From Candidatus Thorarchaeota archaeon (GTDB taxonomy: Archaea; Asgardarchaeota; Thorarchaeia; Thorarchaeales; Thorarchaeaceae), in contig JAEOUG010000156.1 of assembly GCA_016839445.1 (NCBI GenBank), positions 1-23,022 of the forward strand: a DNA stretch of 23,022 bases, given 5' to 3'. The notes below the pieces were generated by a model, which saw only the letters and a list, made by a program, of their open reading frames with translations, had not been told where the DNA came from and made no database searches. The position numbers and the translations under genes were made by a program. The number at the start of each line of letters is the position of its first letter. Within the stretch, counting starts at the first letter, position 1. Positions 1-20,208 of this stretch are shown here, piece by piece.

Positions 1-711
1 GACCTGTTCTTGGATGGTGACCTCCTCTCCAAGAACGACCTTGTGTGTATCGATGATGACAAGCATGCCCAGCTTGGAGTACTTCCCTATTGTTAGCTCG
101 TTGGCACGAATCATACAGGCCATTCCTATGTCCACGTGGTCGCCAATGACAATCTTCTTGCAGTCGAGAATAGAGAGTGGTCCGATGTTGACACCCTCCC
201 CGATCGTTGCACCCCGGCGACGGTAGTCAGCTCTTTTGAGACCTGACGGCAGGAGGCCAATAGTTGCCATCTTCCCTATGGGCATGCTCAGTAGGTCGGG
301 GTCTCCCACGGGAGTCCTCACGAAGAAGAAGGGACCAAAGAGAACCGCGAGAAGAGAGAGCCCTCGAAGCCCTCCAACAAACAAGTTGTAGTCCCCTATT
401 GCTACAGCAAGGCTGTTGCCAAACAGGAGCCACTGGTGCTGCACATCATAGAGCACGAACAGAATCACCCACACTAGTCCCACGAGGAGCATGCCACTTC
501 GCTTGTACTCTGGAACGATTCTGAACACCGTTCTGATGACTATCAAGATCAGCAGGAATAGGCCGAGGGACCTGAGGACATAGGAGAGACCGGTCGCCAG
601 ATACGGTGATGCGAAGCTCTCCCAACTCCATTCAAAGAGCAGAGCGGTAAGAGGAACAACAAGCCCTGCTAGCATTGCGTAGACTCTGCTCTTGGGACTC
701 TGGTCAACCAT
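1..711 (-). CDS. Membrane protein (about 4 TM) fused to a left-handed beta-helix (hexapeptide repeat) acyltransferase-like domain; 3' end runs off the window
   Basis: Own translation of the minus strand, absent from the ORF track because it has no stop in the window: MVDQSPKSRVYAMLAGLVVPLTALLF...LVWVILFVLYD...GDYNLFVGGLRGLSLLAVLFGPFFF...RRRGATIGEGVNIGPLSILDCKKIVIGDHVDIGMACMIRANELTIGKYSKLG...VVLGEEVTIQEQV. Shows [LIV]-G-x4 periodicity. GGAGGT SD precedes ATG 711; an alternative in-frame ATG is at 726. Confidence 0.8.
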   Translation of the reverse strand, partial: MVDQSPKSRVYAMLAGLVVPLTALLFEWSWESFASPYLATGLSYVLRSLGLFLLILIVIRTVFRIVPEYKRSGMLLVGLVWVILFVLYDVQHQWLLFGNSLAVAIGDYNLFVGGLRGLSLLAVLFGPFFFVRTPVGDPDLLSMPIGKMATIGLLPSGLKRADYRRRGATIGEGVNIGPLSILDCKKIVIGDHVDIGMACMIRANELTIGKYSKLGMLVIIDTHKVVLGEEVTIQEQV

Positions 712-850: not shown

Positions 851-2206
851 ATGCTGTCTGCAATCAGTCTGGGCATCTACGAGTTCAGGAAGTACCTGGT
901 ACTCAGCCTCATGATTTCCCTGATTGCGATACCAATCTGTGACGCAATGGTCATCCAGCGTGACAGAAACAGAAACGAGATGTATGGGGAGGCCTTCTGG
1001 ATCTACGGATTCAGTATCTACACTATGAGTGACCGAGAGCTAGCAGAGGCCCTTCCACCAGAGTGGGGCTACAATGACGGGAATCATGTCCTTCCAGAAT
1101 ACTTGGAGAATGTGAACTACGAGTATCCTGTCTTCGGCCTGATCTTCTTTGCCATAGCCACATGGCTGTATCCAGGTACCGGTGGCCTTCAACCCATGTG
1201 GCTCAACTTCCTTCTTGTTCTCGTGTTCAATCTGAATCTGGTTCTAATCGCGATTCTACTTCGGGAAAAGTTGCACAAGGCCAACTGGGCTCGTTTCTTC
1301 TTTGCCGGTTACTTCACGTATGGTCTCTTGATGTCTGCCGGCGGTGGCAAGCTTGAACCAATCGTCGATTGCCTGCTCCTGATGTCACTTGTCCTGTGGA
1401 GGGAGAATCAGAACGGGAAGGCGATGTTCACCCTCGGTCTATCGGTGCAGACGAAGCTGTACACAGCGGTTGCCTTTCCTCTTATGTTTCTGGCGAGTCC
1501 ACTCTCTTCTGTGTGGTTCATCCTCTCCCTTCTGATGACTGTGGTTCCAGTCTTCTTTGGGGCTGACTTCGGATCATTGATCTCTCATCTCTTCAATCTC
1601 TCGAGCTACAGCTCGTACATCGTCAACCCACTCTATCCTGGGCTTGCCTTTTCCACACCTGAACTTGTAGACAATGTGGTGGTTTCCACGTATCCGTGGC
1701 CTCCCGCCCTGATTCCTCTCACAATCTACGCGTTCTTTATGCTGTCCACAATCAAGACCTACATACCCGAGAGGAGAGAGTTTGAGGGCAAGTCATTCCG
1801 TATGAAGCTGCTCACCCTGAGACCATTCTACCTGTATCTCCTACCCGGGATACTCTTTGTCTTCCGCTGGGTGATGCCGTGGTATCTCTACTGGTTAGCT
1901 CCACTTGTTGTGCTATACGACCGGGATGAAAGGGCCAGGGGCTATCTACAGCAAGTCACGCTCATAGGGCTCCTCTACATGCTGGGTCTACTTGCCAACT
2001 GGCCGTACTTCTGGGCTAACCCACTTCCTCAGTTCATGGAGCACTTCCCGTATGGCTTATGGACGATAGGAGGTCTGTTCCTCTTGGTCTTGCTGACCGG
2101 AGTGGCCTTTGTCATCTGGAAATGGGTCTTCTCAAGGAGGTCACGTCTAGATGAGAAGGCTGCGGAGAAACGTGCCGCAGAGATGAGTGGAGAACTCATC
2201 ATATAG
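851..2206 (+). CDS. Multi-pass GT-C fold glycosyltransferase, GT87/DUF2029/PIG-M-like (lipid-phosphate-sugar dependent)
   Basis: 451 aa with many hydrophobic segments. Acidic N-terminal loop ending YEYPVFGLIFF, GKLEPIVDCLLL...LGLSVQTKLYTAVAFP and VMPWYLYWLAPL motifs are typical of GT87-like proteins. Confidence 0.7.
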   Translation: MLSAISLGIYEFRKYLVLSLMISLIAIPICDAMVIQRDRNRNEMYGEAFWIYGFSIYTMSDRELAEALPPEWGYNDGNHVLPEYLENVNYEYPVFGLIFFAIATWLYPGTGGLQPMWLNFLLVLVFNLNLVLIAILLREKLHKANWARFFFAGYFTYGLLMSAGGGKLEPIVDCLLLMSLVLWRENQNGKAMFTLGLSVQTKLYTAVAFPLMFLASPLSSVWFILSLLMTVVPVFFGADFGSLISHLFNLSSYSSYIVNPLYPGLAFSTPELVDNVVVSTYPWPPALIPLTIYAFFMLSTIKTYIPERREFEGKSFRMKLLTLRPFYLYLLPGILFVFRWVMPWYLYWLAPLVVLYDRDERARGYLQQVTLIGLLYMLGLLANWPYFWANPLPQFMEHFPYGLWTIGGLFLLVLLTGVAFVIWKWVFSRRSRLDEKAAEKRAAEMSGELII

Positions 2207-2677
2207 TCACTTTGCACGCCCGTTCTCTCTATAGAACTTCAGAATGCGTTCTCTGATTTGGGTCGAAGAGCAGAGGCCATCTGCTGTCATCTTCCCGAAC
2301 CTCACTATACGTGTCTTGAGCCCCCTCTGAGCAATCGCCTGCCCCAATCTATCTGTGTCTGTGATCTGGTCATATCCGAGGGCTATCACGTCCGGTCTGA
2401 TCATCATGACAATCTCTGAGTGATCCTCAGTATCGAGTCCAATCACTGCTCTGTCAACCATCCAGAGGGATTCGACCAGACGTTTCCTCTGCTCCTGCGG
2501 GAAGACGGGAGGTGCTCCTCTTTCTCGCTCTATGGTCTTGTCTAGAGCGATGACTACAACAAGCTCGCCATCCTCCCCTGCAAGCTCTTTGGCTTGCTCT
2601 AGGTATGCCAAATGGCCTAAGTGGAGAATGTCGAACTTCCCTGCTGCGAGCACAGTTCTTCGGGTCACAGACTTCAC
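2207..2677 (-). CDS. ribL: Archaeal FAD synthase (FMN adenylyltransferase, cytidylyltransferase fold)
   Basis: AAGKFDILHLGH (HxGH), ELVVVIALD, RPDVIALGYDQ, CSSTQIRERI; GTG start. Confidence 0.85.
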   Translation of the reverse strand: MKSVTRRTVLAAGKFDILHLGHLAYLEQAKELAGEDGELVVVIALDKTIERERGAPPVFPQEQRKRLVESLWMVDRAVIGLDTEDHSEIVMMIRPDVIALGYDQITDTDRLGQAIAQRGLKTRIVRFGKMTADGLCSSTQIRERILKFYRENGRAK

Positions 2678-2692
2678 CCTTTTCAGGGTCCT

Positions 2693-2977
2693 CTAGTCCT
2701 CATCAACGGCGAGGAACTCGCTATCTTCAGTGATTACTTCAATTCTCCGCTTCGTCTTCGTAATCTGGCTGACATGTACAAGACCGTTGATTTCCAGTTG
2801 AAGAAGTGCAGAATTGAGTTCAGCATCACTCGGCTCTGTGCCCAGCTCCTTCTTGAGAGCTCTGATTAGCTCGTCATCCAAAATGACGCCGTGTCTTTTT
2901 CTAACGATTTGAACCACCAAGTTGGTGAGAGGGAGTGCGTTCCAGGGTGCCAATCTACTATCACCTTCTTCATCCAT
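2693..2977 (-). CDS. Small winged-helix protein overlapping the cdc48 stop, function unknown
   Basis: [26 protein letters not shown]...[17 protein letters not shown] fits a wHTH pattern; 8-nt overlap with the cdc48 3' end; acidic tail. Confidence 0.7.
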
Positions 2978-5168
2978 AGTGTGCGAGTGTTGCAGCGTCT
3001 GCCTCGGTGCTTCTGCGGAGAACCTGGTCCAGCTTGCTGTACCTGTCCAGCATTTCCTTGGTTACTGATGAGTGTACTCCCTTGAGGGCCTGCTCGAAGT
3101 GCCTCCACGACACCTTCTCGATCTCAGTGTCCTCACGTAGGGCACGCATTCCGGCCTCTCTACACAGGGCTTCTATGTCGCCGCCCACATAGTGTTCTGT
3201 CAGCTCCACCAATCGGGCTAGGTCGACATCATCATCAATGGGCATGTCTTGAGTGTATATCTCGAAGATGGCCTTTCTGCTCGCCGCATCTGGAGCGTTG
3301 ACGTACACAAACCGGTCAAAACGGCCTGTTCGCAGCAGAGCCTTGTCAATAGACTCCGGTCTGTTTGTTGCCGCAATTACGACTATGTCCTTCATGGACT
3401 CAAGGCCGTCCATCTCGGTGAGCAACTGACTGATTACTCTCTCAGTATGATGGAAGTCGCTTGATCCTCCACCACCTCTTGCGGGCGCAATGGCATCAAT
3501 CTCGTCGAAGAAGATGATTGAAGGTGCAGCAGTCCTGGCCTTTCGGAAGACCTCTCTGACCGCCTTCTCGCTCTCTCCCACCCACTTCGAGATGAGTTCT
3601 GGTCCCTTCACGCTGATGAAGTTGGCTTCGCTCTCTGTGGCGACTGCCCTGGCAAGGAGTGTTTTGCCACAACCGGGTGGACCAAAGATGAGAACGCCCT
3701 TCGGTGGCGTAATCCCAATCCTACTAAATGATTCAGGTCGCTTCAGAGGCCACTCGACAACTTCCACGAGTTCCTGTTTGACATCATCCAGTCCGCCGAT
3801 ATCGCTCCATCTCACATTCGGAACCTCTACAAACACCTCACGCACGGCTGAAGGCTGAATCTCCTTCAGAGCCTCGAGGAAATCGCCATTGTGAACCTCT
3901 AGTATGTCGAGGACATCCTGCGGTATCTCTTCATCTTCTAGATTGATTTGAGGCAGGTACCTTCGAAGCGCCTTCATAGCGGCCTCTCTACACAGGGCCT
4001 GAAGATCTGCACCAACGAAGCCATGAGTAGTCTTGGCAAGCTGCTGCAGGTCAACGGCATTTGGGCCTTCTGCAGTGAGCGGCATTCCTCTTGAGTGGAT
4101 ATGAATTACCTCCAGTCTACCAATCTCGTCTGGTACTCCAATCTCTATCTCTCTGTCGAATCTGCCTGGCCTTCTCAAGGCTGGGTCTAGGGCATTGACG
4201 CGGTTGGTTGCACCAATCACCACAACCTGCCCTCTTGCCTTTAGACCATCCATGGTTGCCAAGAGCTGAGCCACAACTCGCCTCTCGACCTCTCCTTGAA
4301 CATCCTCACGCTTTGGCGCAATCGCATCAAGCTCGTCGATGAAGATGATGCTTGGAGCATTCTCTTCCGCGTCTTCGAAGATCTTCCTTAGCTTTTGCTC
4401 TGACTCGCCATAGAACTTCGACATGATTTCTGGGCCGTTGATGTGCACGAAGTTTGCTTCGGATTCTCCTGCTACTGCCTTGGCCAAGAGGGTCTTTCCT
4501 GTTCCTGGCGGACCGTGAAGTATGAGTCCACGAGGCGGATCAATTCCTAGCCTCTTGAAGATCTCAGGATGTCGCATTGGCAGCTCGACCATCTCTCTAA
4601 TCCGCTGAATCTCATCAGCAAGACCACCAATCTCTTCGTAGGTGACCTGTGCGGTGCCAACAATGTCTCCGGTCGGCTTCTCAGCGATGGCTAGCACCGT
4701 TGAGTTGTGGACAACAACAGTCCCTGAAGGCTTGATACCTGTTACTTTGAACGGTATCGCCCGCCCCAAGATAGGGATGAACACCGTGTCCTGAGTTGTC
4801 ACTGGGCAGTTCAGCAGTTTTCGCTTCACGAACTCCTCGAAGCGTGGCTCCGGTCGTATTGGAACTGAAGTGGGCGCCAGTGTGACACTCTTCGCAGGCT
4901 CCTCATTTGCCTTTGATACCGTGACCTTCTCACTTAGGCTCACCCCTGCATTCCTTCTGATTCGCCCATCCATTCGAATGATCTCTCGACCCTTATCACC
5001 TTGATATGCAGGCCAAGCTATGGCCGCAGTAACCCGCTTCCCCTTGATCTGGATGATGTCTCCAGTCCTGACACCCAGCTTCTCCATGGAAACGGCATCG
5101 ATTCTAACAATGAACCTACCGATATCTCGATGCTCAGCCTCTGCAACCTTAAGAACAATCTCGACCAC
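2970..5168 (-). CDS. cdc48: CDC48/VCP/p97 (VAT) AAA+ ATPase
   Basis: N domain plus two AAA modules ([16 protein letters not shown]; [16 protein letters not shown]), RPGRFDRE, C-terminal HYG; GTG start. Confidence 0.98.
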
Positions 5169-5335
5169 TGTTTAGAAGCATCCTCCAGAACTTATGTGAC
5201 GCCAGAAATCGGACGGAATGCCATCAATCATCAGACTCCGTCTTTTATCCGTTATTGAATATTTCCTTAGGACTCAATATAACCCGCTATTAGAAACCTG
5301 ATAAAATGTCCCTGAATGGACAGAATACTGCTGTT

Positions 5336-5602
5336 TCACATTCTCGAGACAATCTCGACTTCGACTTGTGCGACACCTTCCACGGAGCTGATGGCCTTCT
5401 CGATGTCGTCGGTGCCGCCCATGGACTCGTCTCTTGCGAAGTTCATCCTGAGTGCCTGAAGCCCAAAAGCAACAGGTTGCTTCTCAACGGCTCTCAGATC
5501 TGTTCCCTCCGGGATGACTGCCTTGATGTCCTCCAAGAGCTGGTCGAGGTCAATGTCAACGTCCTCTGGCATGACGCGCAGTGTCATTATCACTCTAGCC
5601 AT
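5336..5602 (-). CDS. ef1b: Archaeal elongation factor 1-beta
   Basis: MARVIMTLRVMPEDVDIDLD...PVAFGLQAL...VEGVAQVEVEIVSRM. Start moved from 5683 to ATG 5602 to fit family length (88 aa) and avoid overlap with the upstream gene. Confidence 0.95.
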   Translation of the reverse strand: MARVIMTLRVMPEDVDIDLDQLLEDIKAVIPEGTDLRAVEKQPVAFGLQALRMNFARDESMGGTDDIEKAISSVEGVAQVEVEIVSRM

Positions 5603-5625
5603 CGATGTCGTTCTCCGTATTCCGA

Positions 5626-5802
5626 TTATGGTCCCTCGAAGCCACAGTTGGGGCAGGTGTATCTGTTGGAGAATCTCCTGCACGATTCGCAGCGCCAGAT
5701 TGTGAACTCACCACAGGATGGACATCTGAACTTCACGCTGCTCTCCTGAGGTGACACTGACGCATGGCATGAAGTGCACCTTGTCGCTTTTATCGCTGCC
5801 AA
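5626..5802 (-). CDS. Double Zn-ribbon protein (DUF1610/HVO_2753-like), commonly upstream of aEF1-beta
   Basis: CTSC, FRCPSCGE, IWRCESCRR, YTCPNCGFEGP; probable TTG start at 5802 behind a GGTGA SD. Confidence 0.9.
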   Translation of the reverse strand: MAAIKATRCTSCHASVSPQESSVKFRCPSCGEFTIWRCESCRRFSNRYTCPNCGFEGP

Positions 5803-8602: not shown

Positions 8603-8980
8603 TCAATGGTGAGCTCTTCCGCCACCGCATAGGCCCTCTGCACCCATAGGCTGCGCAGATCCCTCTATGTACATTTCAACAGCTTCTCTCACAGTGCCCG
8701 CTCTTCCTCTTATCACCTTCAGGCCAACTTGCTGAGCCGCCATGAATGGTCTTCCACCCATACCGAGGGTTATCAGGACATTCACACCGTTCTCTGCTAG
8801 AAGGTTCACAGGTTGAGCACAACTTGTGTGTCCGCCATTGTAGATTGTCTCAACATTCACAATCTCACCATTCTCAACAGTCGACACGATGAAGGCCCTA
8901 CAATGACCGAAGTGTCCGCTTATCGGGCTATCAAGCCCGTTGTCAACCTCTGCTGTAACTGCTATTCTCTCAATTGCCAA
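8603..8980 (-). CDS. NifB/NifX (FeMo-cofactor-binding fold) family protein
   Basis: RIAV...SPISGHFGHCRAF...GVNVLITLGMG...GTVREAVE, Cys/His-containing tail (LCGGGRAHH); TTG start. Confidence 0.88.
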   Translation of the reverse strand: MAIERIAVTAEVDNGLDSPISGHFGHCRAFIVSTVENGEIVNVETIYNGGHTSCAQPVNLLAENGVNVLITLGMGGRPFMAAQQVGLKVIRGRAGTVREAVEMYIEGSAQPMGAEGLCGGGRAHH

Positions 8981-8992
8981 TTGGTCGTCACC

Positions 8993-9415
8993 TTATGTTT
9001 CGTCGGATTTCCATCTGAGCCATCGAAGTTTCGTAGAGCCACACTTGCCGCACGTGCTCTTGTCATCTGCCGACATGTCAACCGAAGCTCCACAGTCGAG
9101 GCACTCGAGGACGCCTGTACCATCAGCAAGGATATACCTTCCTCCCTCGATTCGAAGGACGCTGCCCAACACAATTCCTCTGGCAATCTTGCTGCGTGCT
9201 GAGGACAAGATTCGGTTGAATGTGGGCTGGCTGACCTGCATTGCTGCGCTGGCATCTCTCTGGCTGAGCCCCTCGAAATCAGCCATGCGCACTGCCTCGT
9301 ACTCGTCAATTGTTATGAGAATCTCCTCTAGGTCTTTTGCAGGGATGCCTGCAGGCTTGAAGACCGAGATGTGGGGTTCTCGTGTCACAAGTCGCCTTCT
9401 CTTTCTCCGAGGCAT
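8993..9415 (-). CDS. DUF134 HTH protein with C-terminal Zn ribbon
   Basis: MPRRKRRR..FKPAG..DEYEAVRMADFEGLSQRDASAAMQVSQPTFNRILSSARSKIA..LRIEGG; CLDC...CGKCGS. Confidence 0.92.
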   Translation of the reverse strand: MPRRKRRRLVTREPHISVFKPAGIPAKDLEEILITIDEYEAVRMADFEGLSQRDASAAMQVSQPTFNRILSSARSKIARGIVLGSVLRIEGGRYILADGTGVLECLDCGASVDMSADDKSTCGKCGSTKLRWLRWKSDET

Positions 9416-9522
9416 GACTTAGGCTTCATGTGGGGGCCAGAAAAAGTCTTGTGTTCAGCCCCAAATCTACCACAATAGTCCAGATTTTAAAAGCAGAGCG
9501 TTGGTTAGAGGTGGCGATTTCG

Positions 9523-10608: not shown

Positions 10609-10718
10609 GCGTGAAGAGGCTTCTATTGCCCTTATTTCGGTACGCTTAAATGCGCCCCGTCTGTTGAAAACTCGTCAGATGGACTACCGGAGTCCATCAT
10701 CACCATTGGAGGCATTTT

Positions 10719-11051
10719 TTGTCTAGTAGAAAAGGTGGCCGCAGAGGTCAGGATACCAGTCCTGCTGAACCAGTCCGAGTGAGGACTCCCAATCCCAGAG
10801 ATGGGGAGATGTTTGGTGTCATAGTACAGATGCTCGGTTTCGACAGAGTTCGGGTCAGGTGCGAGGATGGTAACATCCGCATCGGAAGAATCCCCGGCAG
10901 GATGAAGAAGCGCGTCTGGATGAGAGTAGGAGACACCGTAATCATTGTACCTTGGGACTTCCAGAGTGAGGACAAGTGTGACGTTGTCTACAGATATCGT
11001 GGTAATGAGCTCGATTGGCTTGAGAAGAAAGGACTTCTCAAGATGTTCTAG
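10719..11051 (+). CDS. eif1a: Translation initiation factor 1A
   Basis: GEMFGVIVQMLG..VRCEDG..RIPGRMKKRVWMRVGD..PWDFQ; TTG start with GGAGG SD. Confidence 0.97.
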   Translation: MSSRKGGRRGQDTSPAEPVRVRTPNPRDGEMFGVIVQMLGFDRVRVRCEDGNIRIGRIPGRMKKRVWMRVGDTVIIVPWDFQSEDKCDVVYRYRGNELDWLEKKGLLKMF

Positions 11052-11121
11052 CGCCAATCCTTTTCTGCAAACTGACGAATACTACCAGTGCAATCCAGCA
11101 CTACGTGGGTGAGGGTCCGCC

Positions 11122-14040: not shown

Positions 14041-15085
14041 GTCAGAGGATGCACTCGCAGTTCTGAGGAAGATGGGCCGGTCTGTAGTTGATTCAATTCA
14101 GAACCAGCAGTTCCCCGCTATTGACATTCCTGACCGCAAGACCAACAACATAGTGTACGACGAGGCATCTGGCAGATTCACCCTGGGTCCCTCGACATCA
14201 AGAAGGGATTCGAGCAACACCAAGCACGTCAGGAGCTTTGCGCAGCTGATGTGGGTAGCGGACTTCGCTAAGCGTCTGCTTGAGTCCTCACGTACGAGCT
14301 CTCTTCGCGATCTCTACTACTCTAGCGAGGCCTTCGGCGTCAAGTTCGCGGATCAATCGGAATCCGACAGAATCGTAACGGACCTTGAATGCTACACAGG
14401 CCACCCTCGGGAGTCGTTCGGCATCTTCCCTGAGGAGCACTCCTCCATCTATGGCGAGATAGTCCTGAGGTACACAGTACCAGGATACGAAGGCCGCGAG
14501 ATTGATCTCACAATAAGCCCGGATGGTCTCCCTGTCGGACCCGCAATCGTATCCGCTGAGCCAGTCCGAAGCGAGGCTCGACTAGTACTAGCTGTTGAGT
14601 CCGGAGGTATGTTCTCCCGCCTCATCGAATCAAGAGCATGGAAACGATTCGGTGCAGTTCTTGTCCAGCTCGGAGGTCAACCACCAAGGGCAACCAGAAG
14701 ACTACTTCGAATCCTTCGAAGCAGACTGGATCTTCCCGTGTACATATTCACAGATGGCGATCCTTGGGGTATGCACATTGCCAAGGTCATTATCAGTGGT
14801 AGCGCCAATTCGGCCCATATATCCGACCTGGCAGTTCCTGATGCCAAGTGGATTGGAGTCACTCCAGATGACATAGAGAACTACTCCCTCCCGAGTGAGC
14901 CTCTGACCAATGCAGATCTCAAACGTCTGGACGACCTTACGAGAGATGTAAGGTATGATTCGTCCAAGTGGGCTGGGTACATCGATGGCTTTCGCCGACT
15001 CAGGGTCAAGGCTGAGCAGCAGGCGTTTAGCAGGTACGGCATGGACTATGTTGTAGACAGATACCTTCAGGACAAGTTGGTCTAG
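14033..15085 (+). CDS. top6A: DNA topoisomerase VI subunit A
   Basis: SLRDLYY (catalytic Tyr), TOPRIM LAVESGGMF and FTDGDPWG, KAEQQA. Start is ATG 14033 (or 14027), overlapping top6B. Confidence 0.96.
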   Translation: MYESEDALAVLRKMGRSVVDSIQNQQFPAIDIPDRKTNNIVYDEASGRFTLGPSTSRRDSSNTKHVRSFAQLMWVADFAKRLLESSRTSSLRDLYYSSEAFGVKFADQSESDRIVTDLECYTGHPRESFGIFPEEHSSIYGEIVLRYTVPGYEGREIDLTISPDGLPVGPAIVSAEPVRSEARLVLAVESGGMFSRLIESRAWKRFGAVLVQLGGQPPRATRRLLRILRSRLDLPVYIFTDGDPWGMHIAKVIISGSANSAHISDLAVPDAKWIGVTPDDIENYSLPSEPLTNADLKRLDDLTRDVRYDSSKWAGYIDGFRRLRVKAEQQAFSRYGMDYVVDRYLQDKLV

Positions 15086-16119
15086 AGCCAGCCAGTGCCA
15101 AAGGGATAGAAGAAGATGAAGAACATCACGGCACCATAGACAAGCAGAGCCTGCAGAAGCAAGAGAATCCTGACGTTCTTCTTCTCAGTCATGTTCCTCG
15201 AGAAGTGGGGCAATAGCCAGTAGATCGTATAGGGGCCCACTACTTGCAGAGTGCCATCTTCCCTTGGAGTGGCGAACTTGACCCAGTCTTGCCCTGTGCG
15301 TCTGACATGTAGTCGATACCATATGTAGAGAAGGAAGTTGATGCCAAAGGGAATGTACATGACGATTGCCAGTCTGTCCATGTTCCCGATTATCAGAGCT
15401 GCCGCGATGGCAGCTCCCATGGGCAGTCTTCCGACGTCTCCCGGTAGGACCTTGGCGGGAAACCTGTTGAAGATAATGAAGCCAATCGCTGCACCAAGCA
15501 GGGCGGCTGCGACAACGGCAGCCTGCATCTCTTTCGGTCCGATTGTGTGGCCATTGATGAAATGAGACATCAGGACATAGACCACAAGCCCTGAGGAATT
15601 AATGATGCTAAGACCAGATTCCAGCCCGTTCATCCCTCCATACATGTTTGTGGCATCTATGATGAAGGTCATCATCAGCGGCACAATCAGGAGGGCATAC
15701 CAGATCCCGAAGTTGACAGTTCCTATGATTGGAAGGGTCATTGTCGGAGTCCCGACACTCATGACCATCATGGGAATAGTAGAAACGAGAGGCAGTGCGA
15801 TCTTCGTTCGAGTCGAGAAGTCCAGATGGTCGTCCAAGAGGCCTATCATTCCCGCCATGAGGATTGAAACGAGGGCCGCGAGGATTCCTACACTCTCAAC
15901 GGAAAGGCTCTGGAAGGTCGTCAGACCTAGCACAATCAGAAGACCGAAGACCAATCCAAAGAGAAGGATGAAGCCTCCACCCTTGGGCACCTCTGGTCGG
16001 TCCGTCTTGTGAACATCGATTCCTGTAGAGCCCCTCTCTCTCAGGACCTTGATTGCGCTGGGTAGGAAGAGGAGCACGGTCAAGAGGGATACCACAAGTG
16101 CCGCCTGAATCTCGAGCAT
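15082..16119 (-). CDS. aglH: UDP-GlcNAc:dolichyl-phosphate GlcNAc-1-phosphate transferase (AglH/ALG7/DPAGT1; MraY/GPT family)
   Basis: About 10 TM; GIDVHKTDRPEVPKGGG, IGLLDD, NMYGGMNGLE, FNRFPAKVLPGDVG. ATG 16119 preferred over TTG 16137. Confidence 0.85.
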   Translation of the reverse strand: MLEIQAALVVSLLTVLLFLPSAIKVLRERGSTGIDVHKTDRPEVPKGGGFILLFGLVFGLLIVLGLTTFQSLSVESVGILAALVSILMAGMIGLLDDHLDFSTRTKIALPLVSTIPMMVMSVGTPTMTLPIIGTVNFGIWYALLIVPLMMTFIIDATNMYGGMNGLESGLSIINSSGLVVYVLMSHFINGHTIGPKEMQAAVVAAALLGAAIGFIIFNRFPAKVLPGDVGRLPMGAAIAAALIIGNMDRLAIVMYIPFGINFLLYIWYRLHVRRTGQDWVKFATPREDGTLQVVGPYTIYWLLPHFSRNMTEKKNVRILLLLQALLVYGAVMFFIFFYPFGTGWL

Positions 16120-16296
16120 TTCACCAACCTCGTGCAACCTCGAGGCTGTCCCCGTTTTGACCTTTTCGGGAAGCTGTGCATGCTTTCAACGTCCGAAATC
16201 TATTTTAGCGAACCCGAAGCTCGAGCGCTCACTCGCTGACCAGTGGATAGTACGTCTACTGGTAGTGAAGTTCCAATCAGCAAACGGTGAAACGGA

Positions 16297-19254
16297 TTGA
16301 GCCTGTTGAAGACAAAGATAGGAACCCTATTCCTGCTCGCGCTGTTCATCACAAGCGCGTTGGCATCTGTTACCCCTATCTCACAAGTAGATGACACGGA
16401 GAGCTTGGCTCAGAGCATAGACGTAGGATCGCTCGTGGCAGAGTCCTCCCTAGATTTCGCCATACCTCATGTTGACGCACACTACGGCTTCTCTGACGGT
16501 ATCATCGATCCGATGGAGTACGCTCACAGTTTCACCGACGAGCAGACTGGAATCACGGCATATGCAGAGCACAATGGAACTCATCTGTATCTGGGGCTTT
16601 CGGCGCCAATCGATGGCTGGATTGGGATTGCCTGGCAGAACTACACAGGGACGTTCACGTCAGCAGGCCTGAACAACAGCGATGTTCTCGTTGGCTATGT
16701 ACCAGGGTCACCAAATGGCAACTACTGGAGGGTCAGACCAACAGATGCTGTGACTGTGCACTACAAGCTCTACCTGCGAAACGGCACTCTGTTTCAGGAG
16801 AGCGACTATCCTGACATCTCGTCAACAGTGGCAGTTGAAGACCTCGGCGTGCTCCCCATGTACAGGGACATGATTCTGGGTATGCGTATTGGCGAGGTGC
16901 GTCACTTCGTGATTCCTGCCGCCCAAGGTTATACCGAAAGAACTGACACTCTCTACGGGGAGGACCTAGTCTACGAGATCAAGTTGACAAGGATCCTCCG
17001 ACAGAGTGTGCAGAGAACGGCCAATCCTGCAGATGGAACATACATCACTTACAGCGACGAACATGGAACAAGCACATTCCAGCACTTGGCCGATGCAGAC
17101 CAGTCAAGGATTGTTGCAGCAGATGGCACTGACAATGGCACACTCATGCAGATTGAATACGAGATTCTCCTGAATTCCACGGATGCCGACGACATTCCTC
17201 TCTTCAACAGCAGTCTAGTGTCATTCCCATTCATATTCATGATGGGGTTGACAGATGAGCTAAATGCCGTACCCCTTGCTCACACCTATTGGGCGGCACC
17301 TGTTGAGGTATCACTCGTACCTAACGCGCCTCCTCTTCTCACCGTTGTAAGTCCCGAGGCGGGATCCACTGTCGAATGGGTGATGAAGCTAGCACTGAAT
17401 GCTAGTGATGACTACATCAGGGAAGCGTCCTATAGGATTGATAGTGGAGACTGGGCATCTCTGCGTTACGACTTCGTGACAACCTACTGGCAGGCGAATG
17501 TAGACTCCGCTGAGTATGACGAGGGTCTCCATACAATCTGGTTCAACGCCACTGACTCGTCAAACGTGACCTCAGTGACCTATGTGAACATCACCGTTTA
17601 CAGACCCTTCCTTCCTCTGCTTGGAATGCGACTAGATGTTGTCCGAGCCCTCACTCCCACAGAGCACTTCGGAACGGAGATCCAGGATGCATTCATTGTC
17701 ACTAACAATGGGTCCGCTCCCATTGGGTCGATTGATATCTACCTCCCGATAGAGTGGGCCAAGAACTTCCTCTCGCTTGAACCATCGGGTGATTCTGAGA
17801 TTCGGATCGTACGCCTTGAGGATGCTGACGGCATGATGCGGTGGAGAGTGTACTTCCCCGAGCCAGTCGGCTTCCGAGAGTCCTACACATTCGAAACTAC
17901 AACCTACATGCACTCCCTGTTCTGGCTGACCGACGAGGAGTCATTCGAGTACCGTATTGAGTACATCAAGTATCCCGTCGTACCCTATGTCCTGAGGAAG
18001 GCAGTATTCGCCTTTGACGAAGACAAACTGGTTCCCTTGGAGGAATCTCCTTCCTCGACTGAGTACAACCTCAACCCGTTGACCATGACCGACTTCAGCG
18101 TACGCCTGAGGCTCTTCACAAAGAACGTTGTGGCGGATCGCGAAACGAGAATAGTCCTGGATGCGTGGGGGTGGCTCGGTTACACAGAGAAGGTTACGTT
18201 GGACAACACAGGCGGCGGCTCTCTCATGAGCTTCAAGTTCACGATACCTGCTTATGCCACCGCCGTGAAGATCTATGATGAGGTGGGTATTCTTGCCCTC
18301 TCCCTGCGAAGTCTGAGCGGCACCTGGAATGAGTCTAGGCAGATTACTGTGTCCCTGTCCGGCGACAGGTTTGGGACCAACGGATTCGAGCCAGGCTTCA
18401 AGTACACGTTCTGGATCACTTATGTTGTCTTGGCCAGTCAGCACCAGACTCCAGCACCCGGTGGGGCAGAACTGACTCCACCCATGGGTCTTCTCGGAGA
18501 CATCTTGGTACGGACCCACACAGTGGATGTTGTGCTGACTGCGACGGTTGGTCTGTCGAGTTCAAGCCCCGGGTATAGGATGTTCTACGGGGTATTTGAT
18601 AGGACATTGAGATACACTGCATACAACTCAACTCTCCGAAATCCCATGGAGATCAACGTAGTCTACACGACGACCATTGGTGCTGCAGCTCGGCCTGCAA
18701 TCTTCACCCTCATTATTGGGGTCATCGCTTTGGCATATGTTGCCTATCGGAAGGTGGATCTACCTGAAGAGATGACTGGTCCTTCTGGTGAGGGTTTCGA
18801 TACGACGCAGGTGAGGCAGACTGGCGCTCCTCCCGAGCTCCTGCGAGACTTTGCCCAAGTCTACTCCCGAAAGACAGCTTTGAACATGGACCTGGAGAAG
18901 CTTGAGGCAGCACGGCGAAGAGGGAAGGTCACAAAGAGGGAGTACATGCTTCGCGAGAAGGATCTCAAAGAGCAGTTGGATGAGATTGATTCCAAGCTCC
19001 CGGGTCTCAAGACCGAGATGATCAAGAACGGGCCTAGGTACCGAGACATTGTTGCCCAACTTGAGCTCCAGGATGAGCGTATCGAGGGTGCGAAAGCTGG
19101 TCTTCGCCAACTTCTCCTCCGGAAGAAGAAACAGCGTATCAGCAGGGTTGCCTTCGAGAAATCAAGGCAGGACTATCTCAAGACCATTCAGAAGGCAACA
19201 AGTGCAACTGACAGGATTCTTCTGTCAGTCCAAGAAGAAGCAGGGGACATCTAG
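16297..19254 (+). CDS. Ribophorin I (OST1)-like type I membrane protein with N-terminal DOMON-like domain, inserted FKBP domain and Ig-like domain
   Basis: Signal peptide aa 1-23; DOMON-like aa ~66-136 and ~248-341; FKBP aa ~146-233; Ig-like aa ~343-435; ribophorin-I-like aa ~445-795 (RIVLDAWGWLGYTEKVTLDNTG, TIPAYATAVKIYDEVG, PGFKYTFWITY); TM aa 801-817; helical cytoplasmic tail. TTG start with GGTGA SD. Confidence 0.78.
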   Translation: MSLLKTKIGTLFLLALFITSALASVTPISQVDDTESLAQSIDVGSLVAESSLDFAIPHVDAHYGFSDGIIDPMEYAHSFTDEQTGITAYAEHNGTHLYLGLSAPIDGWIGIAWQNYTGTFTSAGLNNSDVLVGYVPGSPNGNYWRVRPTDAVTVHYKLYLRNGTLFQESDYPDISSTVAVEDLGVLPMYRDMILGMRIGEVRHFVIPAAQGYTERTDTLYGEDLVYEIKLTRILRQSVQRTANPADGTYITYSDEHGTSTFQHLADADQSRIVAADGTDNGTLMQIEYEILLNSTDADDIPLFNSSLVSFPFIFMMGLTDELNAVPLAHTYWAAPVEVSLVPNAPPLLTVVSPEAGSTVEWVMKLALNASDDYIREASYRIDSGDWASLRYDFVTTYWQANVDSAEYDEGLHTIWFNATDSSNVTSVTYVNITVYRPFLPLLGMRLDVVRALTPTEHFGTEIQDAFIVTNNGSAPIGSIDIYLPIEWAKNFLSLEPSGDSEIRIVRLEDADGMMRWRVYFPEPVGFRESYTFETTTYMHSLFWLTDEESFEYRIEYIKYPVVPYVLRKAVFAFDEDKLVPLEESPSSTEYNLNPLTMTDFSVRLRLFTKNVVADRETRIVLDAWGWLGYTEKVTLDNTGGGSLMSFKFTIPAYATAVKIYDEVGILALSLRSLSGTWNESRQITVSLSGDRFGTNGFEPGFKYTFWITYVVLASQHQTPAPGGAELTPPMGLLGDILVRTHTVDVVLTATVGLSSSSPGYRMFYGVFDRTLRYTAYNSTLRNPMEINVVYTTTIGAAARPAIFTLIIGVIALAYVAYRKVDLPEEMTGPSGEGFDTTQVRQTGAPPELLRDFAQVYSRKTALNMDLEKLEAARRRGKVTKREYMLREKDLKEQLDEIDSKLPGLKTEMIKNGPRYRDIVAQLELQDERIEGAKAGLRQLLLRKKKQRISRVAFEKSRQDYLKTIQKATSATDRILLSVQEEAGDI

Positions 19255-19356
19255 AGCAAGACAACCCTGCCCTTCTTGCCTTCGCCTCCAAATGCCAACT
19301 CAGCAACTCTTATCAAAGGACACGCGCACCCACTATGCCCTTTTGGGGGTACTGCA

Positions 19357-20208
19357 ATGAATACAACAGAATCCTACGACCGTCAGTCCATTCGAGCGAG
19401 AGAGTTCATTGAGCCAGAGTCTCGTGCCTTAGAGATGTATCAGTACCTCACTGGCTCTCCCAAGGTTCAGTCATACCTCCGCACCGCAAACAGAATGGCA
19501 GTGTCGCGACTCGGATACACAGACCATGGACCTGTCCACGCAGAGGTTGCGACATGGAATGCTCTGAAAGCATTTGACATACTAACCCAGACGTTCAATC
19601 CCAATGTCGTCGCTGAGGGAGTTGGCAATCTAGATGATGCCAAGCTTGTTGTGTTGGCTGCGACGTACCTTCATGATATTGGAATGGTCGTCCATCGAAA
19701 CGAGCACTATCAGGCAGCGATTCAGCTAGCTGCTCCTATCTTGGAATCGAAGCTCGAAGACATGTACGAAGACCCCGCAAAAGCCACAGATATCCTGTCT
19801 TTCATACTGCACGGCATCTACGCCCATGATGATGATACACAATGCCTGACGCTCGAGTCTGGAATCACGAAGATTGGTGATGGGTGTGACATGACGAAGG
19901 GTAGGACAATAGTACCGTTCCAGCAGGGCAAGGTGGACATCCACTCAGTCAGTGCTCTAGCAATCAACGAGGTCCATCTAGAAAAGGCCAAGACCAAGCC
20001 ACTTCGCATTACCGTGGCGATGGACAATCCAGCTGGCGTCTTCCAGGTTGAGGCTGTACTGGAGAAGAAGATCTCCACTTCGGGTCTGCGTGATCACGTC
20101 GACATCGATGTTCTCGTCAACGGCGACAGGCTTGTTCTCTCTCATGTGAAGCGGCTCTTCAGAGTCCAGATGAGCGAGTCCCCAGAGTCACTGAGTATGA
20201 AGGACTAG
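19357..20208 (+). CDS. HD-superfamily metal-dependent phosphohydrolase (COG3294-like)
   Basis: GYTDHGPVH, YLHDIG, IYAHD, DGCDMTKGR, DIHSVSALAI; ATG 19357 with GGGGGT SD. Confidence 0.88.
   Translation: MNTTESYDRQSIRAREFIEPESRALEMYQYLTGSPKVQSYLRTANRMAVSRLGYTDHGPVHAEVATWNALKAFDILTQTFNPNVVAEGVGNLDDAKLVVLAATYLHDIGMVVHRNEHYQAAIQLAAPILESKLEDMYEDPAKATDILSFILHGIYAHDDDTQCLTLESGITKIGDGCDMTKGRTIVPFQQGKVDIHSVSALAINEVHLEKAKTKPLRITVAMDNPAGVFQVEAVLEKKISTSGLRDHVDIDVLVNGDRLVLSHVKRLFRVQMSESPESLSMKD

Follow-up and report, generated by a model that had tools for sequence, protein, structure and literature searches.

What is a prolyl isomerase domain doing inside the sandwich of another domain, and to what protein does such an arrangement belong? 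The question is raised by a stretch of 23,022 nucleotides (hereafter the window) from a Candidatus Thorarchaeota archaeon (NCBI GenBank assembly GCA_016839445.1, contig JAEOUG010000156.1), for which an original prediction, made from the sequence, had described an FKBP domain nested inside a DOMON-like domain at positions 16492-17319. This range corresponds to amino acids (aa) 66-341 of a single 985-aa open reading frame (ORF) that begins with a TTG start codon and occupies positions 16297-19254 of the forward strand. The earlier description was confined to this head and missed that the module forms the N-terminal head of a homologue of ribophorin I (OST1), a subunit of the oligosaccharyltransferase (OST) complex, and it is its place at the head of such a protein that sets its likely function. 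By our analysis, the gene belongs to a Thorarchaeota-type Asgard archaeon and encodes its homologue of the ribophorin I (OST1) subunit, in which a complete FKBP sits in the hairpin between two DOMON strands and is followed, after the second DOMON half, by an Ig-like domain.

The existence of the guest domain is readily established. The original prediction had read the segment at about 16732-16995 as an FKBP and had singled out aa 146-233 as the place where an FKBP match was to be expected; Pfam FKBP_C (PF00254) matches aa 146-230 (positions 16732-16986) with an E-value of 5.3e-9 and a score of 36.7 bits, above its cut-off of 21.1, and the match covers model positions 5-93 of 94. The 88-aa FKBP stretch searched alone gives a Pfam E-value of 1.1e-10, and all 33 relatives are matched by FKBP_C at E <= 0.01. 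Its best sequence relatives in the PDB are human FKBP2/FKBP13 (1.6e-4) and FKBP14, followed by bacterial proteins of the Mip/FkbA types. The head was modelled with AlphaFold2 (AF2) over aa 45-348 from a 56-row alignment (pLDDT 86.8, pTM 0.79), and the model was compared with 48,161 chains using the VIA fold search, which is independent of Foldseek. Over model residues ~98-194, VIA returned SlyD (3cgm, Z 12.5), FKBP13 (4nnr, Z 11.5, 33% identity) and 2pbc (Z 11.4), and a Foldseek search against the PDB returned 4nnr_A at 5.3e-6. In the model, the insert with its linkers (aa 140-248, positions 16714-17040) adopts the predicted FKBP fold, a five-stranded sheet around a short helix.

The binding pocket combines invariant and variable positions. 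In the HMMER alignment to FKBP13, Y156, F166, V185 and Y212 are kept, and these we take to correspond to Y26, F36, V55 and Y82 in the numbering of FKBP12, mapped onto the protein through FKBP13; on the same presumed numbering, Q167 stands for D37, Y189 for W59, Y226 for F99 and L186 for I56. The residues originally listed as kept (Y26, F36, V55, Y82) or changed (D37 to Q, W59 to Y, F99 to Y) are therefore right for this protein, but the equivalents of F36 and V55 vary across the family: the F166 column holds F in 5, I in 18 and L in 8 of the 33 members, and the V185 column holds V in 2 and A in 22. Y156, Q167, Y189, Y212 and Y226 are invariant in all 33. The flap, which had been described as short and devoid of an insert-in-flap (IF) domain, is so indeed, since the loop after Y212 is three residues shorter than that of FKBP13, no IF domain is present, and SlyD is aligned by VIA over just 84 of its 157 residues. 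In an ortholog from the sister family (L035), the pocket carries the canonical F-D, V-I and F/Y/F set, which argues that the ancestral guest looked like an ordinary FKBP. A word-index search for a donor, made with the FKBP domain alone, yielded no candidate among proteins of 51-165 aa.

Identifying the host domain required a different approach. Neither flank searched alone gives a Pfam match, even at E <= 10, and the whole protein is not matched by Pfam DOMON (PF03351; gathering score 32.7 bits). A model built for one continuous domain should miss a domain that is split, and the lack of a DOMON match in the intact protein agrees with the earlier remark that single-domain hidden Markov models (HMMs) would overlook an insertion of this kind. 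Among the 33 relatives, eight show DOMON half-domain matches, all below the cut-off (16.8-23.7 bits), with six proteins matched on flank 1 by model positions 9-66 (of 124) and two matched on flank 2 by positions 60-118; at the level of sequence, such half-domain matches on separate flanks are the pattern of a split domain. A search with flank 1 over 400 genomes of the phylum retrieved weaker matches (33-43% identity) in other families, and nine of these other-family ORFs (L036-L044) contain no FKBP and all pass Pfam DOMON with 40.7-173 bits. When 16 Thor-type heads were aligned by hhalign to the 11 uninterrupted DOMON domains of these nine Asgard proteins, the two profiles matched with 99.5% probability and an E-value of 1.3e-22 over 168 columns (template 8-179 of 181), and the sole gap in the template lay opposite query positions 88-197, that is, aa ~139-248, the FKBP insert. 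The guest site corresponds in the uninterrupted relatives to a hairpin reading ...GYVNDATGVVVLSD..., and in the window protein the insertion falls after ...VGYVPGSPN and before ...TYITYSDEHG.

The fold comparison agrees with the alignment. The best VIA rows for the head model are DOMON-superfamily folds that extend over model residues ~10-298 and span the insert: 2ivf_C (Z 15.8, 168 residues aligned), 7b04_C (15.4), the DOMON of dopamine beta-hydroxylase (DBH; 4zel_B, 13.5), 6jt6 (12.5), the CBM9 domain 1i82 (12.5) and the cytochrome of cellobiose dehydrogenase (CDH; 1d7c, 12.2). FKBP chains cover only model residues ~98-194. Foldseek against the PDB returned FKBP matches only for this model, and the DOMON fold was thus seen only with VIA. 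On alignment and predicted structure, then, the flanks at aa ~53-139 and ~249-340 are the two halves of one DOMON beta-sandwich. The N-terminal half (aa 53-139, positions 16453-16713) comprises hhalign query 3-87, with strands at model residues 9-90, and the C-terminal half (aa 249-340, positions 17041-17316) comprises query 198-290, with strands at 207-296. The proposed nesting holds up on the Pfam FKBP_C match, the one-gap hhalign alignment and the fold match across the insert, and the flanks, on which the original prediction had staked its reading, come together in one DOMON-type sandwich by both AF2/VIA and hhalign. Nothing was found in favour of an artefact of assembly or gene calling; among the family's 85 genomes, 80 have the same unbroken frame, the alignment is contiguous over the whole head in 29 of 29 loci, and the insert boundaries are the same in two paralogues (L033 and L034) and in the L035 ortholog. 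We reject an artefact on these grounds and assign it a negligible probability.

A further feature of the model concerns the start of the head. Several VIA rows align FKBP chains from model residue 13-20 instead of ~99 (6tz7_C, 13..198; 4dip_A, 18..193), and the 'IPHVD' strand (aa 53-65, window 16453-16490) may occupy the place of the first FKBP strand. An 'IPYV' motif is also found in uninterrupted DOMONs, so this overlap may be coincidental.

The identity of the best fold matches raises the possibility that the DOMON binds heme b and that the head is an extracellular redox module, given that 2ivf_C, 7b04_C and 1d7c are all heme-b DOMON subunits. The uninterrupted Asgard DOMONs lend this some credit, as a conserved Met (in 10 of 11) and a conserved His (in all 11) lie close to the positions of the CDH heme ligands, and some of them match Pfam CDH-cyt. 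The ligands of P. chrysosporium CDH are Met65 and His163 (PMC11112829). The equivalence is positional only, because the CDH cytochrome was not matched when a profile of the uninterrupted DOMONs was searched against the PDB. In the head, hhalign places L125 in the Met column and H329 in the His column; the first position is Leu throughout the 33 members and Phe in the L035 ortholog, and the second is H in no more than 27 of the 33. This pattern makes heme binding by the head unlikely as judged from sequence, and we regard a redox function as very improbable. The uninterrupted-DOMON proteins L036-L040 and L043 (e.g. L039, 1434-3161, forward strand), which appear as membrane-anchored surface proteins with one or two DOMONs, may be extracellular b-type cytochromes. 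L041 (1131-4214, forward), L042 (1433-4249, forward) and L044 (3-2699, reverse) combine one to three DOMONs with long fibronectin type III arrays and are, from their predicted domain content, large Asgard surface proteins.

The nature of the protein that carries the head emerges from the part that lies beyond it. An Ig-like domain (aa 346-414, positions 17332-17538) comes first: Pfam Big_7 matches it below the cut-off (E 0.0013, 19.8 bits against 24.1) and is found in 12 of the 33 relatives, with a best E-value of 1.5e-10. We searched aa 426-985 (the C-part) with phmmer against 1.84 billion representatives and obtained 296 matches, many of them proteins of ~550-620 aa aligned end-to-end at 22-30% identity. 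In a Pfam scan of 36 relatives sampled from 150 listed of the 296, Ribophorin_I was found in 23 at E <= 0.001 (22 above the cut-off) and was missing from 13, and none of the 36 carried an FKBP or a DOMON. The AF2 model of the C-part (pLDDT 87.3) contains beta-sandwiches, one transmembrane (TM) helix and four long cytosolic helices. For this model, the eight chains that Foldseek ranks first all come from OST complexes of human or yeast, ranging from 3.7e-26 (8b6l_O) to 6.6e-15, and the ninth is an integrin at 4.9e-8. The tool output gives entry titles only, and we take the matched chains to be RPN1/Ost1. In the model, the C-part has the fold and topology of ribophorin I/OST1, with two outer sandwiches, one TM helix and a helical bundle. 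The extracytoplasmic beta-sandwich body, delimited by Foldseek and phmmer, spans aa ~440-790 (17614-18666); the single TM helix, a hydrophobic segment corresponding to helix 369-392 of the C-part model, spans aa 794-817 (18676-18747); and the cytosolic domain, with its four long predicted helices, spans aa 846-982 (18832-19242). At the other end, a signal peptide is predicted by inspection at aa 1-24 (16297-16368) from a K-rich start, a hydrophobic core and ALA-S, and the alignment shows that it is kept in full-length homologues.

Searching the PDB with the family profile points to the same assignment: the best match is 8whn_A, entitled 'Ribophorin 1 superfamily protein', at 1.4e-5 over the C-terminal 130 residues. 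8WHN is described as the ribosome-binding cytosolic domain of the OST1 of strain MK-D1 (PMC11417166). A basic stretch, ...GAKAGLRQLLLRKKKQRISR..., in the cytosolic bundle of the window protein is in keeping with the ribosome binding demonstrated for the OST1 of MK-D1. Two frames considered as short forms of the C-part were rejected, P0122 (608 aa) for starting inside the Ig domain and P0125 (565 aa) for having no start Met.

The mean pairwise identity computed over 33 family proteins differs from region to region. The cytosolic bundle is the most conserved part (81%, with 68 of 140 columns invariant), followed by DOMON flank 1 (72%), the FKBP (65%), DOMON flank 2 (63%), the ribophorin body (51%) and the Ig domain (50%). 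Since flank 1 and the FKBP exceed the ribophorin body, the head is under tighter constraint than the OST1 core itself. W108, W113, Q114, N115, N126, N127 and H263 are invariant in the DOMON halves, and the Asn of the sequon N115-Y-T/S (window 16639-16647) is present in 33 of 33 proteins, as are the sequons N126-N-S (16672-16680) and N293-S-T (17173-17181). The head of this OST subunit is thus probably itself N-glycosylated, to judge from its sequons.

The combination occurs within one archaeal order. A homologue search gave 202 matches among 3715 candidates, mostly of ~970-990 aa (at least 120 listed); the closest are named 'Candidatus Thorarchaeota' or 'Promethearchaeota' by NCBI, and their usual public annotation is 'FKBP-type peptidyl-prolyl cis-trans isomerase' only. 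Within the window's family, 80 of 85 genomes have the ~985-aa frame, as does the sole genome of a second family of the order, so that the DOMON[FKBP] head on OST1 occurs in 81 of 86 sampled genomes of the order. OST1-like matches extend to 318 of 400 sampled genomes of the phylum. The OST1 frames measure ~985-1034 aa in the window's family and its sister family; among the matches listed, those of other Asgard families measure 301-648 aa, mostly 570-640 aa, and so are without the head, which was not seen on any other-family OST1 among the matches listed (a further 176 lie beyond those). The L035 ortholog of the sister family (963-4064, reverse strand) is a 1034-aa frame with 32-36% identity, and its FKBP contains F-D and V-I-x-G-F motifs preceded by an extra loop of ~20 residues. 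Two genomes of the window's family also encode paralogues of ~590 aa (L033, 2025-3818, and L034, 2130-3887, both on the forward strand), whose heads are 37-41% identical and whose layout is DOMON[FKBP]-Ig-PKD-TM, the ribophorin body being absent; at the D37 equivalent they have G or A. In the window's own genome, which is 89.8% complete, the C-part query finds this gene only and no second OST1-like gene. The Pfam Ribophorin_I and DOMON models proved unusable as copy counters there, having missed this gene itself. STT3/AglB and a short OST3_OST6-like match are encoded elsewhere in the same genome. The presence of STT3/AglB, the single OST1-like copy and a conserved glycosyltransferase neighbour (see below) count in favour of the OST1 identity.

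Taken as the head of an OST1 homologue, the module is on balance probably an FKBP peptide-binding/prolyl-isomerase device that works at the translocon-OST site as an isomerase and/or a holdase. OST1 would lie beside the Sec translocon (SecYEG) and the STT3/AglB catalytic subunit, as eukaryotic structures and the work on MK-D1 suggest; so placed, its head would hold the FKBP pocket at the outer face of the membrane, where it would face the site at which nascent chains emerge and are glycosylated. The FKBP would bind proline-containing stretches of the emerging chains and, as a holdase and/or prolyl isomerase, would link the early folding of these chains to their N-glycosylation; the DOMON would provide a rigid scaffold, possibly with a ligand (glycan) binding surface, instead of a heme cytochrome. 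The tight constraint on the head, the invariant pocket aromatics and the canonical pocket motifs of the L035 ortholog speak for this reading. Two precedents are available: human FKBP11, a separate FKBP, joins the ribosome-bound translocon next to OST-A (PMC12804085), and MK-D1 OST1 binds ribosomes via its cytosolic bundle (PMC11417166).

Several observations weigh against this proposal. The D37 equivalent is Q in all 33 family members and G or A in the two paralogues, and the variation of the F36 and V55 equivalents implies that catalysis may be weak or lost. The pocket may be exposed or may be packed on the DOMON, and the isomerase role stays putative. As regards the assignment of the protein, Pfam Ribophorin_I (PF04597) gives no match to the window protein itself; the same model is matched in 7 of 33 close relatives (best 5.5e-8), and because it misses the window protein the OST1 assignment rests on relatives, profile and fold. 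The assembly of OST1 with AglB and SecY in this organism is likewise extrapolated from eukaryotic structures and the MK-D1 work. The authors of the FKBP11 study argue that burial of its pocket opposes an isomerase role on nascent chains (PMC12804085).

Some of these observations also feed an alternative in which the FKBP is a non-catalytic adaptor whose pocket holds a fixed partner, serving assembly or recruitment as has been proposed for human FKBP11; candidates for the partner are another OST or translocon subunit, a protein of the S-layer or cell surface, and one of the protein's own loops. The conserved Q at D37 and the drift at F36 and V55 are what an adaptor might show, the pTM of 0.79 suggests in the model a fixed packing of the FKBP on the DOMON, and at the translocon CCDC134 buries the pocket of FKBP11 (PMC12804085). 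Against an adaptor, the other-family ortholog retains the canonical F-D pair, and the partner is putative; the four invariant pocket aromatics (Y156, Y189, Y212 and Y226) fit an adaptor and a peptide binder equally. We consider a purely adaptor function unlikely, though it is the main rival.

A second alternative makes the DOMON the working part, a lectin-like binder of CBM9/DOMON type for lipid-linked or freshly transferred glycan, to which the FKBP would be accessory. Among the fold matches are a cellobiose-containing CBM9 structure (1i82, Z 12.5) and 4jpq (Z 10.9), a putative carbohydrate-binding protein. Outside the membrane, no part of the protein is more conserved than flank 1, which holds most of the invariant W, Q and N residues named above, with H263 in flank 2, and the heme Met equivalent has been lost. 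On the other side, several of the invariant N residues belong to N-X-S/T sequons and may be no more than glycosylation sites, heme-binding DOMONs obtain similar Z scores, and the sugar site is putative. We judge a lectin as the principal function to be improbable. More speculative is a combination of the two activities, in which the DOMON, as a lectin, would bind the newly attached (or lipid-linked) glycan and prolines close by on the same emerging chain would be handled by the nested FKBP, making a built-in glycoprotein-folding station; we hold this, too, to be a long shot. The peptide-binding/prolyl-isomerase module at the translocon-OST site remains the reading that we prefer.

Gene content in the window looks archaeal and Asgard-like (Cdc48, FEN1, aIF2-beta, NMD3, RIO1 and topoisomerase VI A and B). 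A divergent neighbour on the reverse strand (15082-16137) encodes a GT4 glycosyltransferase of the MraY/AglH/Alg7/WecA-type family (Pfam Glycos_transf_4, 1.5e-29), and this gene adjoins the OST1 homologue head-to-head in 29 of 29 related loci (at one of them, where the locus ends, a 27-residue piece is all there is of it) and at the L035 ortholog, where it lies upstream. The downstream gene (19276-20208, forward strand) has a weak HD-domain match (4.4e-4, below the cut-off), and an HD-domain gene also lies downstream of the ortholog in L035, as in the window. Four window ORFs of 141-451 aa are without a Pfam match at E <= 0.001 (851-2206, 5306-5749 and 8940-9422 on the forward strand and 10632-11057 on the reverse strand).

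A literature search over listings and text passages found no paper on this arrangement. Among the eukaryote-like proteins of Asgard archaea is OST1/ribophorin I, whose role beyond ribosome docking is unclear even in eukaryotes; the lineage-wide conserved head (aa ~25-345) offers a tractable, soluble handle on whether folding catalysis and ligand binding are physically tied to N-glycosylation at an archaeal translocon. It is also a clear-cut example from nature of one domain lodged in the beta-hairpin of another, where single-domain HMMs fail. Should the folding-station proposal be true, the protein would be a one-polypeptide counterpart of the pairing of a lectin chaperone or translocon of the endoplasmic reticulum (ER) with a prolyl isomerase (calnexin/cyclophilin B, FKBP11/OST-A), and glycosylation-coupled folding at the translocon would have arisen in Asgard archaea before the ER.

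The protein can be placed among known systems domain by domain. The reference OST1s are those of MK-D1 ('Ca. Prometheoarchaeum syntrophicum', 607 aa; 8WHN; PMC11417166), human RPN1 and yeast Ost1 (8B6L, 6S7O, 6EZN), with all of which it has in common a signal peptide, a two-sandwich outer body, one TM helix and a cytosolic four-helix bundle, and from which it differs by ~400 extra N-terminal residues (DOMON[FKBP] and Ig). The FKBP-in-DOMON head parallels the recently described association of human FKBP11 with OST-A: at the ribosome-Sec61-OST-A translocon (PMC12804085; 9YGY/9N9J), a lumenal FKBP is likewise found next to OST, and the fold of FKBP11 matches the FKBP of the head at Z 10.9 in VIA. 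FKBP11, however, is a separate single-pass protein that is dynamically recruited, whereas here the FKBP is covalently part of the OST1 chain and lies within a DOMON. SlyD and the archaeal IF-containing FKBPs have the same FKBP fold (3cgm, Z 12.5; 3prb, Z 10.2; 1ix5, Z 9.1) and also show domain nesting, but with the FKBP as host instead of guest; the domain described here has no IF domain and an extracytoplasmic location. The Asgard DOMONs, ethylbenzene dehydrogenase gamma, NxrC, the DBH DOMON, the CDH cytochrome and CBM9 all have the same sandwich, and the head and its DOMON relatives have in common the motifs DG..EY, GW.G, GY, H..D and EF/EY, but here the domain is interrupted by a guest of ~109 residues and the conserved Met of the relatives is Leu. 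Finally, the thioredoxin-type subunits OST3/OST6 (TUSC3/MagT1) already provide a folding catalyst as part of OST; theirs is a different subunit and a disulfide chemistry, whereas the bond addressed by the module described here would be the prolyl bond.

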